From IMG/VR virus record IMGVR_UViG_3300001481_000036: a DNA stretch of 20,000 nt. One strand, 5' to 3'. Below the pieces are notes generated by a model, which saw only the letters and a program-made list of their open reading frames with translations, was not told the origin of the DNA and did no database searches. Shown here in pieces: positions 1,196-8,855 of the stretch. The position numbers and the translations under genes are program-made. Each line of letters starts with the position of its first letter. Position 1 is the stretch's first letter. Source of the stretch: an uncultured virus (IMG/VR IMGVR_UViG_3300001481_000036). Taxonomy: Duplodnaviria > Heunggongvirae > Uroviricota > Caudoviricetes.

Positions 1196-3322
1196 ATGGT
1201 TCAGATTCGTAAAAAGACGGGATTGGTGCAAGCATTTGATTCTAATAAAATAATAGAAGCTGTAAAAAAGTCGGCGGATAGAGTTAATGTAGAGATGCCA
1301 CCCACTAAAAATAACCGTCTTATAGAACTTGTCTTAGAAGCTATACAGGATAAGGAGATTATAGATGTTAAAGACCTTCACAAATATGTTGAATTAGCTT
1401 TGGATGAAGTGGATCATGATGTTGCTAAATCATATCGTGAATACCGTAATTATAAAATGCAGTTCGTAAAAATGTTGGATGAGGTATATAGAAAGAAATT
1501 ATCTTTAAATAATACACAGGATGCGTCTAATGCTAATGCTGATTCCGCTTTGGTTACAACACAAAAAGCTATCACTTATTCAGAACTGAATGGTGAATTG
1601 TATAGAAGATTCTTTTTAACAGATGAAGAAGAAAAAGCTATGAAGGATGGTTATATATACATTCATGATCGTGGATCTCGTCTGGATGCTAGTAACTGTT
1701 GCCTCTTCGATATGAAATCTGTTTTAACAGGTGGCTTTGAAATGGGGAATATGCACTATAATGAGCCTAAAAGTATAGGTGTTGCATTCTCTGTTATGTT
1801 AGATGTTATATTTAATGCAGGATCTAGTCAATATGGTGGCTTCACTGTATCAGAAGTTGATAAGTTACTAGCGCCTTATGCAGAAAGGTCTTATAATGAA
1901 TATATTAAAGAATATGAAAGTATTAAAGGAATGGATGACCTTAAAGGTGCTGATGAGTATGCTACTAAGAAATTAAAAAGAGAGATTGAACAACATGTAC
2001 AAGCTATGGAGATGAAGCTAAATTCATGTGAGACCTCTCGTGGCGATTATATCTTTACCTCTATTTCTTTTGGTCTTTCTAAGGATCGCTTTGGGCAAAT
2101 AATATCCTCTGCTATACTTAAAGTAAGAAAAGAAGGACAGGGTAAAGATGGTTTTAAACGTCCTGTGTTATTCCCCAAACTTACTTTTATGTATGATGAA
2201 AATCTACATGGTGAAGGAAAAGAATTAGAGTGGTTATTCTTAGAAGCGGTAGATTGTACTATGAAAGCACAATACCCAGACTTTCTTTCTATGACAGGTG
2301 ATGGGTATGCACCTTCTATTTATAAAAAGTATGGTGTTACTATTAGCCGTATGGGATGCAGAGCCAATCTATCCCCGTGGTATGAGAGAGGTGGTATAGA
2401 GCCCGCAGATGAAAATGATAAACCTGTTTATGAGGGTAGGTTTAATATGGGAGCTATCTCATTGAATTTCCCAATGATAGTAGCAAAGGCTAAAGAGGAA
2501 AGTAAAGATTTCTTTAAAGTATTGGAGTATTACTTAGATCTTTGTCGTAAAATTCATCTTCGCACCTTAGAATATTTCTCACACAAAAAAGCAGGTATAA
2601 ATCCATTAGCTTTCTGTCAGGGAGGCTTCTATAAAGGTCATAAAGATCCTGATGAAGAATTAGGAAAAGATTTTCTTAAACCTTGTACAGTGTCTTTTGG
2701 TATTACAGCTCTTAATGAAGCTACAGTAATGTATAATGGTAAATCAATATATAAAGATAAATCAGAGTTTGCATCTCAGGTTTTACAGTTTATAAATGAT
2801 TATGCAAATAAGCATAAAAAAGAAGATGGCGTACTATATGCTATTTATGGAACTCCCGCAGAATCATTAGCTTCATTACAAGTAAAACAATTCCGTAAAA
2901 AGTATGGTGTTATTAAAGGTGTATCTGATAGGGAGTATATGTCAAACTCTTTTCACATGCACGTATCCGAGGATATAACCCCAATAGAAAAGCAGGATGC
3001 AGAATACAAATGTTTCCATCTTTGTAATGGCGGAAACATAATGTACAATAGGTTTACTTCCGAATATAACAAAGACTCTTTTGTAGCTTTAATTCGTAGA
3101 GCTATGAAACTAGGGTATTACTATGGATGTAATCAATCAAAAGATTATTGTAAAAATTGCGGTAAAGAGTTTATTGATTTAGACCAATGTCCTAATTGTG
3201 GTAGTGAGGATATTGTGCGTATAGAACGTGTTTGCGGCTACCTAGGGATGTCCAGAGTAGGTGATAAAACAAGAATGAATGATGGAAAATTAGCAGAAAT
3301 AGCAGATAGAAAATCTATGTAA
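1196..3322 (+). CDS. nrdD: Anaerobic (class III) ribonucleoside-triphosphate reductase with N-terminal ATP-cone
   Basis: ATP-cone (VQIRKKTG..FDSNKIIEAV), YIHD, SNCC, SRMGCR finger loop, YGTPAES, SNSFH, Zn site CKNC..CPNC and glycyl-radical motif RVCGYLG. GGGAG SD. Confidence 0.98.
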   Translation: MVQIRKKTGLVQAFDSNKIIEAVKKSADRVNVEMPPTKNNRLIELVLEAIQDKEIIDVKDLHKYVELALDEVDHDVAKSYREYRNYKMQFVKMLDEVYRKKLSLNNTQDASNANADSALVTTQKAITYSELNGELYRRFFLTDEEEKAMKDGYIYIHDRGSRLDASNCCLFDMKSVLTGGFEMGNMHYNEPKSIGVAFSVMLDVIFNAGSSQYGGFTVSEVDKLLAPYAERSYNEYIKEYESIKGMDDLKGADEYATKKLKREIEQHVQAMEMKLNSCETSRGDYIFTSISFGLSKDRFGQIISSAILKVRKEGQGKDGFKRPVLFPKLTFMYDENLHGEGKELEWLFLEAVDCTMKAQYPDFLSMTGDGYAPSIYKKYGVTISRMGCRANLSPWYERGGIEPADENDKPVYEGRFNMGAISLNFPMIVAKAKEESKDFFKVLEYYLDLCRKIHLRTLEYFSHKKAGINPLAFCQGGFYKGHKDPDEELGKDFLKPCTVSFGITALNEATVMYNGKSIYKDKSEFASQVLQFINDYANKHKKEDGVLYAIYGTPAESLASLQVKQFRKKYGVIKGVSDREYMSNSFHMHVSEDITPIEKQDAEYKCFHLCNGGNIMYNRFTSEYNKDSFVALIRRAMKLGYYYGCNQSKDYCKNCGKEFIDLDQCPNCGSEDIVRIERVCGYLGMSRVGDKTRMNDGKLAEIADRKSM

Positions 3323-3335
3323 ATAGGGAGACTTT

Positions 3336-3818
3336 ATGAACTATCATAACATTCTTCATTGTAATGAGAATAATGGTACTGGGTTACGTGTAGTATTATT
3401 CGTATCTGGCTGTTCTCATAATTGTAAAGGCTGTCATAATCCACAAACACATGATCCTTGTTCTGGAATACCCTTCACTGAGGAAGCTAAGAAAGAAATA
3501 TTCCAAGAATTAGAGCAGGAATGGTGTACTGGATTAACACTAACAGGTGGAGATCCTTTATTCCCTGATAATCGACCTATTATTCTTTCCTTAGTAAAAG
3601 AAATAAAAGAGAGATTCCCTAATAAAACCATTTGGATTTATACTGGTTATCTTTATGATTCCATTAAAGAATGGCTTGGAGTAAAGGAAATTCTAAAATA
3701 CTGCGATGTTATTGTAGATGGCCCATTTATAGAGGAACAAAAAGAATATGGGTTACAATGGCGCGGATCAAAAAATCAACGTGTCATAGAATTAAATACA
3801 GGTAATTCACTCGTTTAA
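3336..3818 (+). CDS. nrdG: Anaerobic RNR activating radical SAM protein
   Basis: NGTGLRVVLFVSGCSHNCKGCHNP (CxxxCxxC), TGGDPL, VDGPF and WRGSKNQRVI. Lies directly after nrdD. Confidence 0.97.
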   Translation: MNYHNILHCNENNGTGLRVVLFVSGCSHNCKGCHNPQTHDPCSGIPFTEEAKKEIFQELEQEWCTGLTLTGGDPLFPDNRPIILSLVKEIKERFPNKTIWIYTGYLYDSIKEWLGVKEILKYCDVIVDGPFIEEQKEYGLQWRGSKNQRVIELNTGNSLV

Positions 3819-4744: not shown

Positions 4745-4811
4745 ATAAGGTAGGTGGGTAGTTCACATAAATCCCCACAGACCAACTTTACAAAAATTAA
4801 AGGAGTTAGTT

Positions 4812-5522
4812 ATGGCAGGAATAGACAAAATATATTTAAAAAATTATACTGAGTATGAACATCTTAAGATTTTCTTAGAGAGATGTGATTCTGAGTTCTT
4901 AAAGGGATATAATTATAGCTTGTTCGGAATGTTATATGAGTTAGGCAGTTCTTATTTTAATGGGATTGATGAACATCCAGTCTCGAATTTCTCTCTAGCG
5001 GCTGATGTGTTTATTATTCATCACTTTTTAGATGAAGATATTAGCTCTATGCCTAATGTGTGGAATAGATTAAAAGAACAGTATGGTGATGATTTTGAGT
5101 TAATTAGAAATCACACTTCTTGTTATGATAAATATAGAGTAGATTTATCAGGATGTAAGATTAAATTAGTGAAGTCTTCTAATAATAAGACACTTAGACA
5201 CATCAAACGGGAACATTGGTCACATTGTTCTATTCATTTTGTCGGAAATAAGACTGCTTTTAAAAAGAAAATAATCATAACTTATCCAGAGTTTAATTAT
5301 TTCTATAGATGTTTCTATGATTGGGGAAATGGATGTAAGTATGACAGATATGATCCAGTAAACAACAACTGCTTTTGTGAAGAAACGTCTATGAAACAAA
5401 TTATTAAATATATAACAAATTCAGGTTTAAAGAAAGATGATACTATTCTTGTTCATTGTTGGGACTTAAATAATGATGGAGAATATGAGAAAGAAGCCGA
5501 GTATGAGTTTATTGTTGTTTAA
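4812..5522 (+). CDS. Hypothetical phage protein
   Basis: 236-aa ORF with AAGGAG SD. Confidence 0.85.
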   Translation: MAGIDKIYLKNYTEYEHLKIFLERCDSEFLKGYNYSLFGMLYELGSSYFNGIDEHPVSNFSLAADVFIIHHFLDEDISSMPNVWNRLKEQYGDDFELIRNHTSCYDKYRVDLSGCKIKLVKSSNNKTLRHIKREHWSHCSIHFVGNKTAFKKKIIITYPEFNYFYRCFYDWGNGCKYDRYDPVNNNCFCEETSMKQIIKYITNSGLKKDDTILVHCWDLNNDGEYEKEAEYEFIVV

Positions 5523-5805: not shown

Positions 5806-5995
5806 ATGGATGAAATGATAAAATTAAGTGATGAAGATTTTGAAGAATATCGTGAGATATTTCAGGATGTCCTAGCATTGCGTGGAGATTTTAGATTACC
5901 AAGAATTATCTGATGCCATATATGATATTCAGGAACCGTTAGATGCACTCTTTAAGGCTTTAAAGAAAATAGTTATTGATCAGAAACAAAAATAA
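5806..5995 (+). pseudogene. Frameshifted small helical protein (62 aa if one T is removed from the run at 5889-5892)
   Basis: AGGAG SD plus ATG 5806 gives MDEMIKLSDEDFEEYREIFQDVLALRGD and stops at TGA 5911. The +1 frame continues DYQELSDAIYDIQEPLDALFKALKKIVIDQKQK to TAA 5993-5995. Confidence 0.6.
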
Positions 5996-6052
5996 AAAAT
6001 AACAAAAACTGATTGCAAAAATCGAAAATAAGCTGTATAAAGAATAAAGAGA
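5971..6052 (+). promoter_or_regulatory. Promoter-containing repeat cassette, copy 1
   Basis: TTGCAA(6013)-17bp-TATAAA(6036) with an A-rich upstream element. Near-duplicate of 7204-7283. Confidence 0.75.
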
Positions 6053-6142: not shown

Positions 6143-7243
6143 ATGAGAGAAAGGAAAGAGTTAGAAGGTGTAATTTCTTGTTGGAATGAGATATATCCAA
6201 ATAGGAAAAATCAGCCAACTTTGTTATTTGTAACAGATACAATATTACAAAGCATTGCTAAGGATTTAGGGTTTGTAATATGTGAAGAAAATGATAAAAC
6301 ACTTACATTTAAGTGTTTGAATTTTCCTTTAATCGGTGAGCTAGACCTTAATAAGAAAGCGAAAAATTTATCTCTATTTTTCGATCTTAATCCATATTCT
6401 TTAGTTATAAATGGAGAAGAGAGAAGTAGAGAATATACGATTACTGCATTTAAGTGTGACTTGAAGCATCGTGTAGCAGAGTTTGTATTTCTACATTATG
6501 TTGATTTACAGAAACAATTAATATCTTTACAGAAAGCATATTTAGGGTTTAGTATACAAAGTATGTATATGAATCATGTAGACACAAAGTTTGTATTAGA
6601 TTTTAATGGTATGTTTAATAAAGCAGAGTTGCTATTAAACAATATACATATACATCTAAGTAACCTTATAGGAACATCTTATTTTAGCAATTCAGTTTAT
6701 AGCTTAACAAGTAATTTTAGATGTGTACCAAAAGTATCATCTGATGGTTCATCACACAGCAATATAACATTATGTGTAAATGTTATTCCTGTTGTTGAAA
6801 AGTTAGAAAATAGAAAATGCTTTGATGCTGTTCATTCTTTTGTGAAAGAAAGACTAAAAGAACAGTATAAGGAATATTCATTAAAGGATTTAGAAAACAG
6901 AAAAGCGAATATTTCTTCCACAGATACTAGGTGTGTTTCATTTCCAGATACACTTATTCTTAATGAAACGACATTTAAAAATGTATTTCCAGACAGGCTT
7001 TTACCTGAATGGAGTTTAATGTGGGGTATGTGTTCTATATATATTACTGAAGATATATCAGATGGTCATATATTATTTATTAGTTCTTCTGATGATATGC
7101 GAAACCCTATCTGCATTGATAAAGAAAATAATAGGTATTATGTAAATGAAACAAGTAGAGATATTCTCGCTTTTAATGTTTCTATTAAAAGTAAAGATGA
7201 ATTAGTTATTGATCAGAAACTAGTAGAAAATAATAAAAACTGA
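6143..7243 (+). CDS. Hypothetical mosaic protein, possibly containing virion-protein-like fragments
   Basis: 366-aa ORF downstream of a promoter and hairpin leader. Confidence 0.85.
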   Translation: MRERKELEGVISCWNEIYPNRKNQPTLLFVTDTILQSIAKDLGFVICEENDKTLTFKCLNFPLIGELDLNKKAKNLSLFFDLNPYSLVINGEERSREYTITAFKCDLKHRVAEFVFLHYVDLQKQLISLQKAYLGFSIQSMYMNHVDTKFVLDFNGMFNKAELLLNNIHIHLSNLIGTSYFSNSVYSLTSNFRCVPKVSSDGSSHSNITLCVNVIPVVEKLENRKCFDAVHSFVKERLKEQYKEYSLKDLENRKANISSTDTRCVSFPDTLILNETTFKNVFPDRLLPEWSLMWGMCSIYITEDISDGHILFISSSDDMRNPICIDKENNRYYVNETSRDILAFNVSIKSKDELVIDQKLVENNKN

Positions 7244-7283
7244 TTGTAAAAATCGGAACTAAGCTGTATTTAGAATAAAGAGA
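7204..7283 (+). promoter_or_regulatory. Promoter-containing repeat cassette, copy 2
   Basis: TTGTAA(7244)-17bp-TATTTA(7267). Shares AGTTATTGATCAGAAAC, AAAAACTGATTG, AAAAATCG, TAAGCTGTAT and AGAATAAAGAGA with copy 1. Confidence 0.7.
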
Positions 7284-7350
7284 ACCTGTTTGGTTCTCTT
7301 TTTGTTACTGGATGGTATTCCAGACTCCCGTTGGAGACTCACATTTGAGG
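7277..7350 (+). other. Four-hairpin structured 5' leader
   Basis: AAAGAGAACC/GGTTCTCTTT, CTGGA/TCCAG, CTCC/GGAG and CTCA/TGAG. The last hairpin overlaps the GAGG SD. Confidence 0.55.
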
Positions 7351-7355
7351 TAAGT

Positions 7356-8576
7356 ATGCGTGTTGCAGTAAAGAACATGAGTGGTGTATTTATACATTCC
7401 ACCACTCCACGAAAAGCTAGGCTTCTTCTAAAAGAGAAGAAAGCTGTCATAGAATCAAACAATCCTTTCACTATTCGTCTTTTGTTTTCTAAAAGTGAAT
7501 GTGGATTAAAGGATTCTGAATCATTAAACAGACTTAACGCAGGCTTATTGTCTGAAAAGGATAACACTATGTGTGATGATAGAAAAGAAATAGAAGAATT
7601 GCACAATGCTTATGGCGACTACATACAACCAAGTCTAAATGTTATAATGGCTAATCCTAAGAACAAAAGGATAAAATGGTGTAGTAAAGATAGCAATTCT
7701 GCAAACGGTGAGAATAGTTCTGAATCATTTGTACAAACCTTATATGATGCTTGCACCATGTTATATCAGCAAACAGATGGCCGATATTATGGTAACTTTG
7801 TACATATTGGTAAAAGAGGATTTGAGCTTTTACAAAGACTTGACCCTAAAAGATTCTGGAAAATGGATAATTGGGTAGGAATTGATGATGCTATAAAAGT
7901 ACACTATATCGCGACTATGCCAGAAAACAATTTTATTGTAAGTATAAATAATAATTATTTTAAGGATCGTGATAAATTCATTGTGGGGTCTATAGTGGAT
8001 GAAGAATGTTCTGAGAAAAGTGAATCAGAGGAAGCTATTAAACAACAGGAACAGTCAGACAATAATAAGTCTGAAAAGGAAAGCATTATGAGTAATGAAA
8101 TACATATCCCCAAAACACATCTTATTTTTGGTGCAGTAGGATGTGGTAAAACTACGCTATTAGCTAAACTGGTTAGAGATAGGCTAAATAATGGTGAACA
8201 AGTTGCACGTGTTTTATATAATAAAAATAAAGACGTACACTCTAAACTATTTCATTCAGAGAATGGAGGGTATTGTACTTTGATTGAATTTCATGGGAAA
8301 GACGCATATTCACCAGTTGAAGCAAGTTATCATCTGATGAAAGCGTGTGAATTTCCAGCTTCTATTACAACAATAGTGTTAGATGATATTAATAAATTTT
8401 TAATACACGGTGATTACGATCCTCAGGAATATTTCCGTGAGTTCTCTAGGGTATGTCGTGAGAACAATATAGATTTCATCTGTACTTTAGGTGCTGATTC
8501 AGATAAAAATGAGGTCTATCACAAACTTCCAGAAATCTATGAACGATTCTCTGATATTATAACTGTTTTGAAATAG
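7356..8576 (+). CDS. Fusion protein: PLMP/RRXRR domain + capsid(gp23)-A-domain-like module + P-loop NTPase
   Basis: ATG 7356 follows GAGG. The N-terminus VAVKNMSGVFIHSTTPRKARLLLKEKKAVIESNNPFTIRLL matches the IscB N-terminal pattern. Walker A GAVGCGKT (8130-8153) and Walker B IVLDD. Confidence 0.8.
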   Translation: MRVAVKNMSGVFIHSTTPRKARLLLKEKKAVIESNNPFTIRLLFSKSECGLKDSESLNRLNAGLLSEKDNTMCDDRKEIEELHNAYGDYIQPSLNVIMANPKNKRIKWCSKDSNSANGENSSESFVQTLYDACTMLYQQTDGRYYGNFVHIGKRGFELLQRLDPKRFWKMDNWVGIDDAIKVHYIATMPENNFIVSINNNYFKDRDKFIVGSIVDEECSEKSESEEAIKQQEQSDNNKSEKESIMSNEIHIPKTHLIFGAVGCGKTTLLAKLVRDRLNNGEQVARVLYNKNKDVHSKLFHSENGGYCTLIEFHGKDAYSPVEASYHLMKACEFPASITTIVLDDINKFLIHGDYDPQEYFREFSRVCRENNIDFICTLGADSDKNEVYHKLPEIYERFSDIITVLK

Positions 8577-8584
8577 TGCTTATA

Positions 8585-8613
8585 AGGGAGATTCATTTGT
8601 TAGGAATCTCCCT
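8585..8613 (+). other. Intergenic hairpin followed by CCAACTTT leader motif
   Basis: AGGGAGATTC-9nt-GAATCTCCCT with no U tract. Confidence 0.6.
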
Positions 8614-8645
8614 GTAACCAACTTTAAGAAATAAGGAACACTATT

Positions 8646-8855
8646 ATGAGATGGAATTACACAGTTTTCTCTGAATACCCGCAAAAACGAGCGCTTTGTT
8701 TCGTCGAAATAGGTATTAATCATTATAAATTATTATGGTTTCAGAAGGAGGATAAATGGTGGTATGACTATGATACATACAAACCTTATGCAGAGAGTAC
8801 CGAACATTTAAAGTGGGTGTACTTAGACGACATCTTAGAAAACATTGATATATAA
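8646..8855 (+). CDS. Small Trp-rich protein, DUF551-like
   Basis: W..P....CFV....WY....KWVYL pattern with AAGGA SD. Confidence 0.75.
   Translation: MRWNYTVFSEYPQKRALCFVEIGINHYKLLWFQKEDKWWYDYDTYKPYAESTEHLKWVYLDDILENIDI

Follow-up and report, generated by a model that had tools for sequence, protein, structure and literature searches.

Proteins of the HK97 fold are known as the building units of shells, both those of capsids and those of encapsulins. In the major capsid protein (MCP) gp23, the A-domain forms the interface between the subunits of one capsomer and influences whether a hexamer or a pentamer results (PMC9958956; papers are cited throughout from excerpts of their texts). According to the preprint 10.64898/2026.01.04.697583, the immune sensors Avs7, Avs8, Avs10 and Dsr1 recognise the HK97 fold through its shape and wrap around it; SeAvs7 mostly contacts the penton- and hexon-forming region of the A-domain, and CapRel is described as sensing the MCP via short motifs. 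In addition, two described proteins offer partial parallels: Ccm of SaPIbov5, a satellite-encoded homologue of the capsid protein of the helper phage that redirects capsid shape (PMC8569155), and DSAD1, a phage protein that blocks the trigger site of the protein-sensing defence DSR2 (PMC11087589). In the OMEGA protein IsrB, the PLMP domain, a small beta-sheet with a helix, contacts the terminal hairpins of the omega RNA and the Shine-Dalgarno (SD) sequence located just before the open reading frame (ORF) (PMC9581776). Here, we describe a gene in a stretch of 20,000 nucleotides (the window) from an uncultured member of the Caudoviricetes (IMG/VR record IMGVR_UViG_3300001481_000036), in which three parts are combined: a PLMP-like N-terminus, a domain derived from the A-domain of a gp23-family MCP, and a small P-loop ATPase.

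The origin of the middle domain became apparent from the genome of the phage itself. Searching this 252-kb genome with the whole protein yielded one extra place (G000:C1:52394-52768; query residues 94-213, E 1.9e-7), which corresponds to a 481-aa ORF that matches Pfam Gp23 (PF07068, E 4e-37) and PHROG 138 'major head protein' (E 1e-36). A genome-wide search with PF07068 identified this MCP as the sole Gp23-family gene of the phage. The alignment of the fragment to the true capsid gene, which an earlier note made from the sequence of the window had proposed as a check, gave by BLASTP an E-value of 5e-10 with 27% identity over 126 columns, covering MCP residues 317-439. Moreover, a hidden Markov model (HMM) of the domain built from 38 family members retrieved only the gene itself and the MCP (E 3.4e-17, 59 bits) from all 1854 six-frame ORFs of at least 40 aa, and hhalign of the 38 domain rows against 82 MCP rows aligned domain positions 26-135 with MCP residues 319-430 (99.1%, E 8e-19). 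The invariant columns of the domain family fall on near-invariant columns of the MCP, namely W108/W330, F125/F347, G146-N147/G367-N368, G152/G373, F167/F388 and K181-V182/K410-V411, which argues that the fold is under selection in all alleles.

At the scale of databases the signal is faint. The domain alone produced no relevant match to Pfam or PHROGs at E ≤ 1, the cut-off of PF07068 not being reached, and a phmmer search with the domain against 1.84 billion representatives yielded no MCP at E ≤ 1e-3; the similarity between domain and MCP is therefore remote. The 17 matches of the latter search at E ≤ 1e-3 comprise six that were counted as family members (P0016, P0037, P0022, P0060, P0152 and P0153), P0163 (81 aa), which looks like a further fragment, and 10 long repetitive proteins that were taken as spurious. 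The third allele of the domain, P0028, weakly matches the PHROG of the MCP (phrog_138, E 0.0098). Homology is hence established by the within-genome and profile comparisons and not by single-sequence statistics at database scale: judged by these alignments, residues 72-218 (positions 7569-8009) and residues ~319-430 of the MCP of this phage share a common origin. A second full capsid gene or a vertex gene of the gp24 type was ruled out, as the domain is too short and most of the fold is absent.

The predicted structure leads to the same assignment. AlphaFold2 (AF2) was run on residues 72-218 with the family alignment, from which the MCP rows had been excluded, and returned a model with a pLDDT of 85, a pTM of 0.80 and the element order H-E-H-E-H-E-E-E-E-E. 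When this model was compared with the PDB by Foldseek, every match listed was a capsid or encapsulin shell protein, including T1 (best, 9e-4), T4 gp23 (2-3e-3), gp24, HK97 and P1, with query-normalised TM scores of 0.5-0.6 and a high rmsd. Likewise, all 50 matches listed by VIA-align, which is independent of Foldseek and covered 48,161 chains, were HK97-fold shell proteins; T4 gp23 ranked first (Z 10.2, rmsd 4.0 Å, 138 of 147 residues aligned), and 7rwz, the Ccm protein of SaPIbov5, was among them. Best Z values of 7-8 are common by chance in VIA-align; the argument is carried by the uniform list together with the sequence evidence. Mapped through a phmmer alignment of the phage MCP with T4 gp23, the homologous part corresponds approximately to gp23 residues 309-442. 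From the order of the elements, we take the first long helix to be the spine helix and the remainder to be the core of the A-domain.

The domain does not comprise a complete HK97 fold. With 147 aa compared to 481 aa, it covers only MCP residues ~319-430 and the preceding helix, and the N-arm, the E-loop, the sheet of the P-domain, the insertion domain and the last ~50 residues are absent. By homology and predicted fold, the domain represents two parts of a gp23-family MCP with HK97 fold, the long helix and the core of the A-domain. The proposal of the earlier note that the gene contains a gp23-like A-domain fragment is thus borne out by the HMM, hhalign and both structural searches; the similarity to HK97-fold A-domains on which that proposal had been staked is present, and the profiles and the predicted fold likewise support its description of the fragment as isolated and non-assembling in structural terms.

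The same note had assumed a fusion to an NTPase, and this also holds: the parts are not separated by a stop codon, and the C-terminal region carries both a Walker A (GAVGCGKT) and a Walker B motif (IVLDD), followed by a conserved family-specific tail (DY..EYFRE ... ERFSDIITVLK). An AF2 model of residues 245-406 (50 rows, pLDDT 85) has KaiC, RecA, RuvB-like and VirB11-type proteins and thymidine kinase as Foldseek neighbours (E ~1e-5, query-normalised TM 0.5-0.7). Sequence libraries returned matches at the level of the Walker A motif only, the best of 13-18 bits against curated cut-offs of 194-408 for KaiC, FlaH and RecA, and the ATPase allele of P0028 aligns weakly over the whole domain with FlaH, KaiC and ArlH models. 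PADLOC gave no defence-system match beyond the P-loop, the matches being stretches of 30-60 residues around Walker A with E 2e-4 or worse; the ESM Atlas neighbours were small hypothetical viral proteins, Zot and AAA_24 being no more than leads. Going by the predicted fold, residues 245-406 are a small KaiC/RecA-like P-loop ATPase.

While the capsid piece and the NTPase had been noticed before, the third module had been missed, as had the mosaic nature of the gene treated below. Residues 5-47 match positions 3-45 of 174 of the Pfam RRXRR profile (E 8.6e-5, below the cut-off), the PDB profile of TbaIscB (E 5e-4) together with other IscBs, and the NCBIfam model guided_IscB (E 3e-6, far below the cut-off). 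The scores remain below the curated whole-protein cut-offs because only the PLMP domain is present. No RuvC, bridge helix or HNH follows it, the remainder of the protein being the capsid-like domain and the ATPase. Furthermore, no HEARO (omega) RNA was found between positions 6900 and 7700 at E ≤ 1 with a library that gives 137 bits before the true IscB of the phage. This complete OMEGA unit is located outside the window (L005:1177-2694; G000:C1 ~131483-133000) and consists of a HEARO RNA (RF02033, 137 bits, E 1e-29) and, immediately downstream of it, the gene of an IscB-like protein of 413 aa (Pfam RRXRR, E 4e-69, and HNH). The PLMP domain of the chimera may have been derived from such a unit.

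Table 1. Positions of the chimeric gene, its predicted domains and the flanking elements in the window.
Feature	Position	Strand	Remark
Containing ORF	7290..8576	+	likely start ATG 7356, 5 nt after a GAGG SD
Gene	7356..8576	+	406 aa plus stop, one open frame; 100% identical cluster P0001
Terminator-like hairpin closing the upstream ORFan gene	7277..7301	+	10-bp stem and T run; stem kept in 5 of 6 aligned loci; inside the conserved left end of the cassette
Leader, ~33 nt	7322..7355	+	two 4-bp mini-hairpins (7325-7336, 7338-7349) and GAGG SD (7347-7350), the latter overlapping the 3' arm of the second mini-hairpin
PLMP-like domain (aa ~1-50)	7356..7505	+	profile matches to IscB models
Left junction repeat (codes SEKDNTMCDD)	7550..7579	+	with AAGGA and ATG (M72); 30-nt direct repeat, 83% identical to 8069-8098
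Capsid-derived domain (aa 72-215)	7569..8000	+	sequence and predicted fold
Acidic, serine-rich low-complexity linker (aa 216-244)	8001..8087	+	from the translation; length varies in the family
Right junction repeat (codes SEKESIMSNE)	8069..8098	+	with AAGGA and ATG (M245); pairs with the left repeat
KaiC/RecA-like P-loop ATPase (aa 245-406)	8088..8573	+	Walker motifs, predicted fold
Conserved trailing hairpin (9 bp) next to the stop codon, at the cassette's right end	8586..8612	+	stems kept, loops differ in L009, L011 and L016

The leader of the gene (Table 1) is identical in 6 of 6 related loci, except for one loop base in L011, and is kept even where the upstream sequence is unrelated (L012). 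The region 7244-7375 folds with a z-score of -2.9; both predicted SD-proximal hairpins are invariant, and the aligned loci show no covariation, a double change occurring in 1 of 25 predicted pairs. The comparison of the leader with that of the phage's IscB yielded no convincing alignment. With its predicted hairpins, the leader could serve as an operator for the PLMP domain.

Related genes form a family of 65 clusters at E ≤ 1e-3. In an alignment of 38 full-length members, none of which shows a frame break, the N-terminal ~72 residues ending in ..EKDxTMC are near-invariant and the C-terminal tail is invariant. Between these, at least three capsid-like alleles occur that are 31-40% identical and nevertheless keep 18 invariant columns, and at least four ATPase alleles are freely combined with them. 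Including a fourth allele in P0165, there are at least four capsid-like alleles overall, with 0-2 copies per protein. Most members consist of PLMP, A-like domain and ATPase. The A-like domain is absent from P0040, P0043, P0044, P0052, P0059, L012, L013 and L016, which join PLMP directly to the ATPase; P0049, P0055, P0057 and P0060-62 start at the M of TMC and thus comprise the A-like domain and the ATPase; and the ATPase stands alone in L003, L010 and L014. L017 encodes an A-like domain alone (170 aa, with its own stop), whereas P0004 contains two different A-like domains in tandem, and P0165 an A-like domain, an unassigned domain of ~215 aa and the fourth A-like allele. Other unassigned domains occupy the slot in P0037 and P0063-65; like that of P0165, these resemble no protein of this phage genome, Pfam or PHROGs. 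An artefact of gene calling or assembly was ruled out, as many independent contigs contain the fused frame.

On either side of the capsid-derived part, which is an in-frame cassette, lies a copy of the 30-nt junction repeat. In P0052 and P0059, which are devoid of the capsid-like domain, the reading frame passes through one such junction without interruption; P0038 and P0019 have other deletion end points, and P0010 retains the tail of a lost second copy; at least three different deletion junctions exist in the family. Contigs of other samples (runs X2, X3 and X8) match the window from 7203/7205 to 8631/8632 and differ from it to the left, and where they span the whole unit of 7203-8632 (X2, X8) they contain 52-58 other letters per ~1430 nt (~96% identity). 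Conversely, a contig of X14 matches 6143-7573 (62 other letters, 35 gaps) and switches directly after 7573 to a sequence that we read as a second allele (cf. P0023), and a second X14 contig shares only 8112-8152 and 8467-8631. These contig comparisons indicate that the unit, including the leader and the trailing hairpin, moves as a block while inner modules are swapped at short conserved joints. When 42 domain rows were placed in a tree with 33 MCP segments, a single branch (SH-aLRT 100) set all domain alleles apart on one side; this tree, obtained by a quick method, unrooted and with long branches, is compatible with one capture followed by deep divergence. The distribution is narrow, with six true representatives in 1.84 billion proteins. 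Neither the protein (by tblastn) nor the complete window (by megablast) had a match in 50,697 phage records, and a scan of viral contigs revealed one locus with the ATPase only. In Bacillus phage SP-15 (KT624200.1 / NC_031245.1), the annotation splits a gp23-type capsid gene into two parts that flank a putative endonuclease, which serves as a reminder that mobile endonucleases target the capsid genes of this lineage.

The window corresponds to positions 153750-173749 of a virus record of 252,372 bp (estimated completeness 94%) with a G+C content of 29-36%, in which 269 of 276 crudely called ORFs are on one strand. DNA containing the stretch stems from animal, largely ruminant, gut metagenomes, and the nearest characterised capsid proteins to the MCP (~30% identity) are from phages of Bacillota. 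Positions 1196-3818 encode NrdD, an anaerobic ribonucleotide reductase of 708 aa with an ATP-cone, together with the activase NrdG, which fits a phage of an anaerobic gut host; further neighbours include a phosphoesterase and a SprT-like protein. The gene itself is located among ORFans, ~109 kb from the MCP gene. A Pfam and PHROGs scan of 22 window ORFs left 12 unmatched and four more with sub-threshold matches only, and in five related loci 27 of 31 neighbour genes lack a Pfam family and no constant partner was found. Few kb from the gene, the related contigs L010 (6306-7079) and L013 (1511-2281) encode a Thg1-like tRNA-His guanylyltransferase (Pfam, E 3e-32), and L010 also encodes a PIN7 domain protein. 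Upstream, a direct repeat of ~85 nt (5967-6052 and 7200-7283; 78-88% identical) flanks a 366-aa ORFan gene at 6143-7243. This repeat, together with the different sequence to the left of 7203 in X2, X3 and X8, suggests that the ORFan is itself an inserted cassette. Downstream, a 69-aa ORF (8646-8855) is missing in contigs of X3 and X8, where 8632 is joined to 8869; in X2, 600 different letters take its place.

As to the timing of expression, a scan for sigma-70-type promoters found fewer sites than in shuffled sequences and placed none before the gene. By k-mer enrichment, we observed a phage-specific upstream motif, CCAATTTTACAAAAAT, a spacer and ACCAACTTTAAAGGAG, before many genes, including those at 4812 and 8646 of the window (sites 4782-4811 and 8618-8645) and at least 20 further sites in the genome, mostly at 112-144 kb and 201-237 kb. 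The motif probably represents a phage promoter class. It is absent before the chimeric gene, where the invariant leader is found instead, and no RNA run is listed as holding the stretch. Neither the sigma-70 scan nor the absence of the motif lends support to the 'early-type' label that the earlier note gave the gene, or to late expression.

Several features point to a conflict gene rather than to a head-assembly gene: the combinatorial alleles, the arrays, the repeated loss, the mobility as a block, the narrow distribution and the ORFan setting. The most plausible class of function would be the one proposed in the earlier note, in which the fragment misleads or inhibits capsid sensors or disturbs competing phages. 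Given the nature of the A-domain interface and the literature on Avs sensors, an isolated A-domain is the minimal object able to occupy a sensor or to cap a capsomer without forming a shell. As our leading reading, though with low confidence, we tentatively suggest that the cassette is a non-assembling mimic of the capsomer-forming A-domain face that soaks up capsid-sensing immunity. Without N-arm, E-loop and P-domain sheet, the fragment would be unable to build a shell and would still present the surface bound by A-domain binders. It could thereby occupy sensors of the Avs7/Avs8/Avs10/Dsr1 type, which recognise the shape of the MCP, without supplying the rest of the trigger, and with the sensors occupied the real capsid protein would no longer trigger abortive infection. 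The ATPase, of a usually ring-forming fold, might raise avidity by bringing several copies of the mimic together, or might actively reshape the sensor; with arrays of different alleles, a wider range of sensors would be covered; and the PLMP domain and the hairpin/SD leader may control translation. The low sequence identity to the MCP is no bar to such a mimic, given the recognition by shape described for these sensors. The Lit system and its Gol peptide, which the earlier note had cited as precedent, do not apply: Gol is located in the first quarter of gp23 (PMC3014915) and the fragment corresponds to residues ~309-442, so that a Lit trigger of the Gol type was ruled out.

Several points weigh against a sensor mimic. 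With 27% identity to the phage's MCP and 31-40% among each other, the alleles cannot all copy one surface in detail, and the frequent loss of the cassette indicates that it is dispensable. A decoy by itself needs neither the ATPase nor the PLMP domain, the roles of which are left unexplained, and the presence of MCP sensors in the host is an assumption. As the other domains in the slot are without matches, a general array of structural-protein mimics is not supported; moreover, the word 'capsid' occurs 0 times in a text on 268 anti-defence proteins, which thus offers no precedent. The most elaborate version, in which the phage's own A-domain has been turned into a portable in-frame trigger mimic, presented singly or arrayed on a ring ATPase to neutralise sensors of the Avs7/Dsr1 type and exchanged via the junction repeats, with PLMP domain and leader as a captured OMEGA piece that autoregulates translation, appears unlikely in its entirety.

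The other member of the preferred class, a close rival to which we give a slightly lower and likewise low probability, is interference with capsid assembly: the A-like domain would dock to the MCP of co-infecting relatives or capsid-forming satellites and cap or mis-form capsomers as a dominant-negative, with the ATPase as oligomeriser or motor, and the MCP of the resident phage would be spared by the divergence of the cassette. The contacts that A-domains make within capsomers and their role in deciding between hexamer and pentamer (PMC9958956) would suit such interference, as would the precedent of Ccm as a capsid homologue used as a weapon (PMC8569155), whose structure (7rwz) the structural searches also retrieved. 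Defences that act by preventing virion assembly have been described as well (PMC10884400, PMC11364771), and several deep alleles and tandem arrays would give range against several rivals. However, we found no MCP closer to the cassette than that of the phage itself, and all alleles lie on one side of the branch from the 33 MCPs in the quick tree; hence, no allele can be tied to a target lineage. In addition, the fragment is devoid of the parts that join neighbouring capsomers.

The closest relative found, the gp23-family lineage of the phage's own head protein, would suit a self-directed adaptor that binds the MCP or the procapsid and brings in PLMP domain and ATPase, be it to help assembly, as an accessory in packaging or as a protein that is itself packaged. 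That the three modules are found both fused and split suggests a joint action. We nevertheless regard this as unlikely, since head housekeeping would be expected to be conserved and to rely on a single allele, whereas the domain has repeatedly been lost, duplicated and swapped. Moreover, the gene is far from the head genes and, by tblastn against the 50,697 phage records, absent from most gp23-type phages.

Similarly improbable is the co-option of the A-domain, with its natural 5- or 6-fold rings, as a module that stacks or spaces ATPase rings without any link to capsids or immunity. The fold of the ATPase is that of ring-forming KaiC, RecA and RuvB-like proteins, free-standing folds resembling the A-subdomain exist, as described for PF0899 (PMC11476376), and unrelated domains can fill the same slot. 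Yet the strongly diverged tandem copies of P0004 and P0165 and the free-standing domain of L017 are hard to explain by ATPase rings, and the existence of domain-less forms implies that the ATPase does not need the domain. That the domain is a decaying leftover, with no function of its own, of an MCP segment that was duplicated and became caught in an accessory gene, as the frequent deletions and the low identity to the MCP might suggest, is very unlikely in view of the 18 invariant columns kept across alleles of 31-40% identity, the confident AF2 model, the intact frames of the 38 full-length members and the duplication and spread of the domain. The remaining probability belongs to explanations other than those considered here.

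If the cassette is indeed a trigger mimic, it would be the first case of an anti-defence decoy that stems from the very structural protein being sensed, would provide a direct handle on phage escape from immune sensors of the capsid fold, and would constitute a natural set of minimal A-domain variants with which to probe sensor recognition. Whatever the function, the family offers a clean and testable example of how jumbo phages of the ruminant gut exchange cassettes at the level of domains. An A-domain that has been excised, kept folded under selection, diversified and moved inside a non-structural ATPase gene represents a new viral reuse of the most conserved protein; the full texts searched, which exclude most subscription journals, contain no description of an excised HK97 A-domain as a module of a non-structural protein.

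Taken together, the chimera resembles several known systems in part. With the PLMP domains of IscB and IsrB it shares the N-terminal ~45 residues and, in the invariant hairpin/SD leader directly before the ORF, an arrangement comparable to the SD-containing omega-RNA hairpin described for IsrB (PMC9581776); it differs from these nucleases by the absence of RuvC, bridge helix, HNH, TI domain and an upstream omega-RNA match. Its ATPase shares the fold and the Walker motifs with KaiC, FlaH, ArlH and core-only RecA-like phage ATPases, but comprises ~160 aa, lies far below every curated cut-off and has a tail of its own.

In comparison with gp23-family MCPs (PF07068; T4 gp23 and gp24), ~110 homologous residues share the order of secondary structure elements and the predicted fold; the cassette amounts to about a quarter of an MCP, is not matched by the Pfam model, and resides in a non-structural chimera where it is multi-allelic and often deleted. 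Like Ccm as it has been described, it is a derivative of a capsid protein outside the normal set of head genes that is plausibly used in conflict through capsid-type contacts. Ccm is satellite-encoded and takes part in the shell, whereas the piece described here is phage-encoded, fused to an ATPase and without most of the fold by which a homologue could occupy a place in the shell. The proposed logic, a phage protein occupying a sensor of structural proteins, is that of DSAD1, and among the MCP sensors Avs7 and Dsr1, the A-domain is the surface that Avs7 is described to engage most. DSAD1 is not known to be a homologue of its trigger, whereas the candidate blocker would be derived from the trigger itself. 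Each of the nearest known systems, be it a full-length capsid paralogue like gp24 or Ccm, a sensor blocker like DSAD1 or the PLMP domain of OMEGA nucleases, has a single aspect in common with the gene described here.

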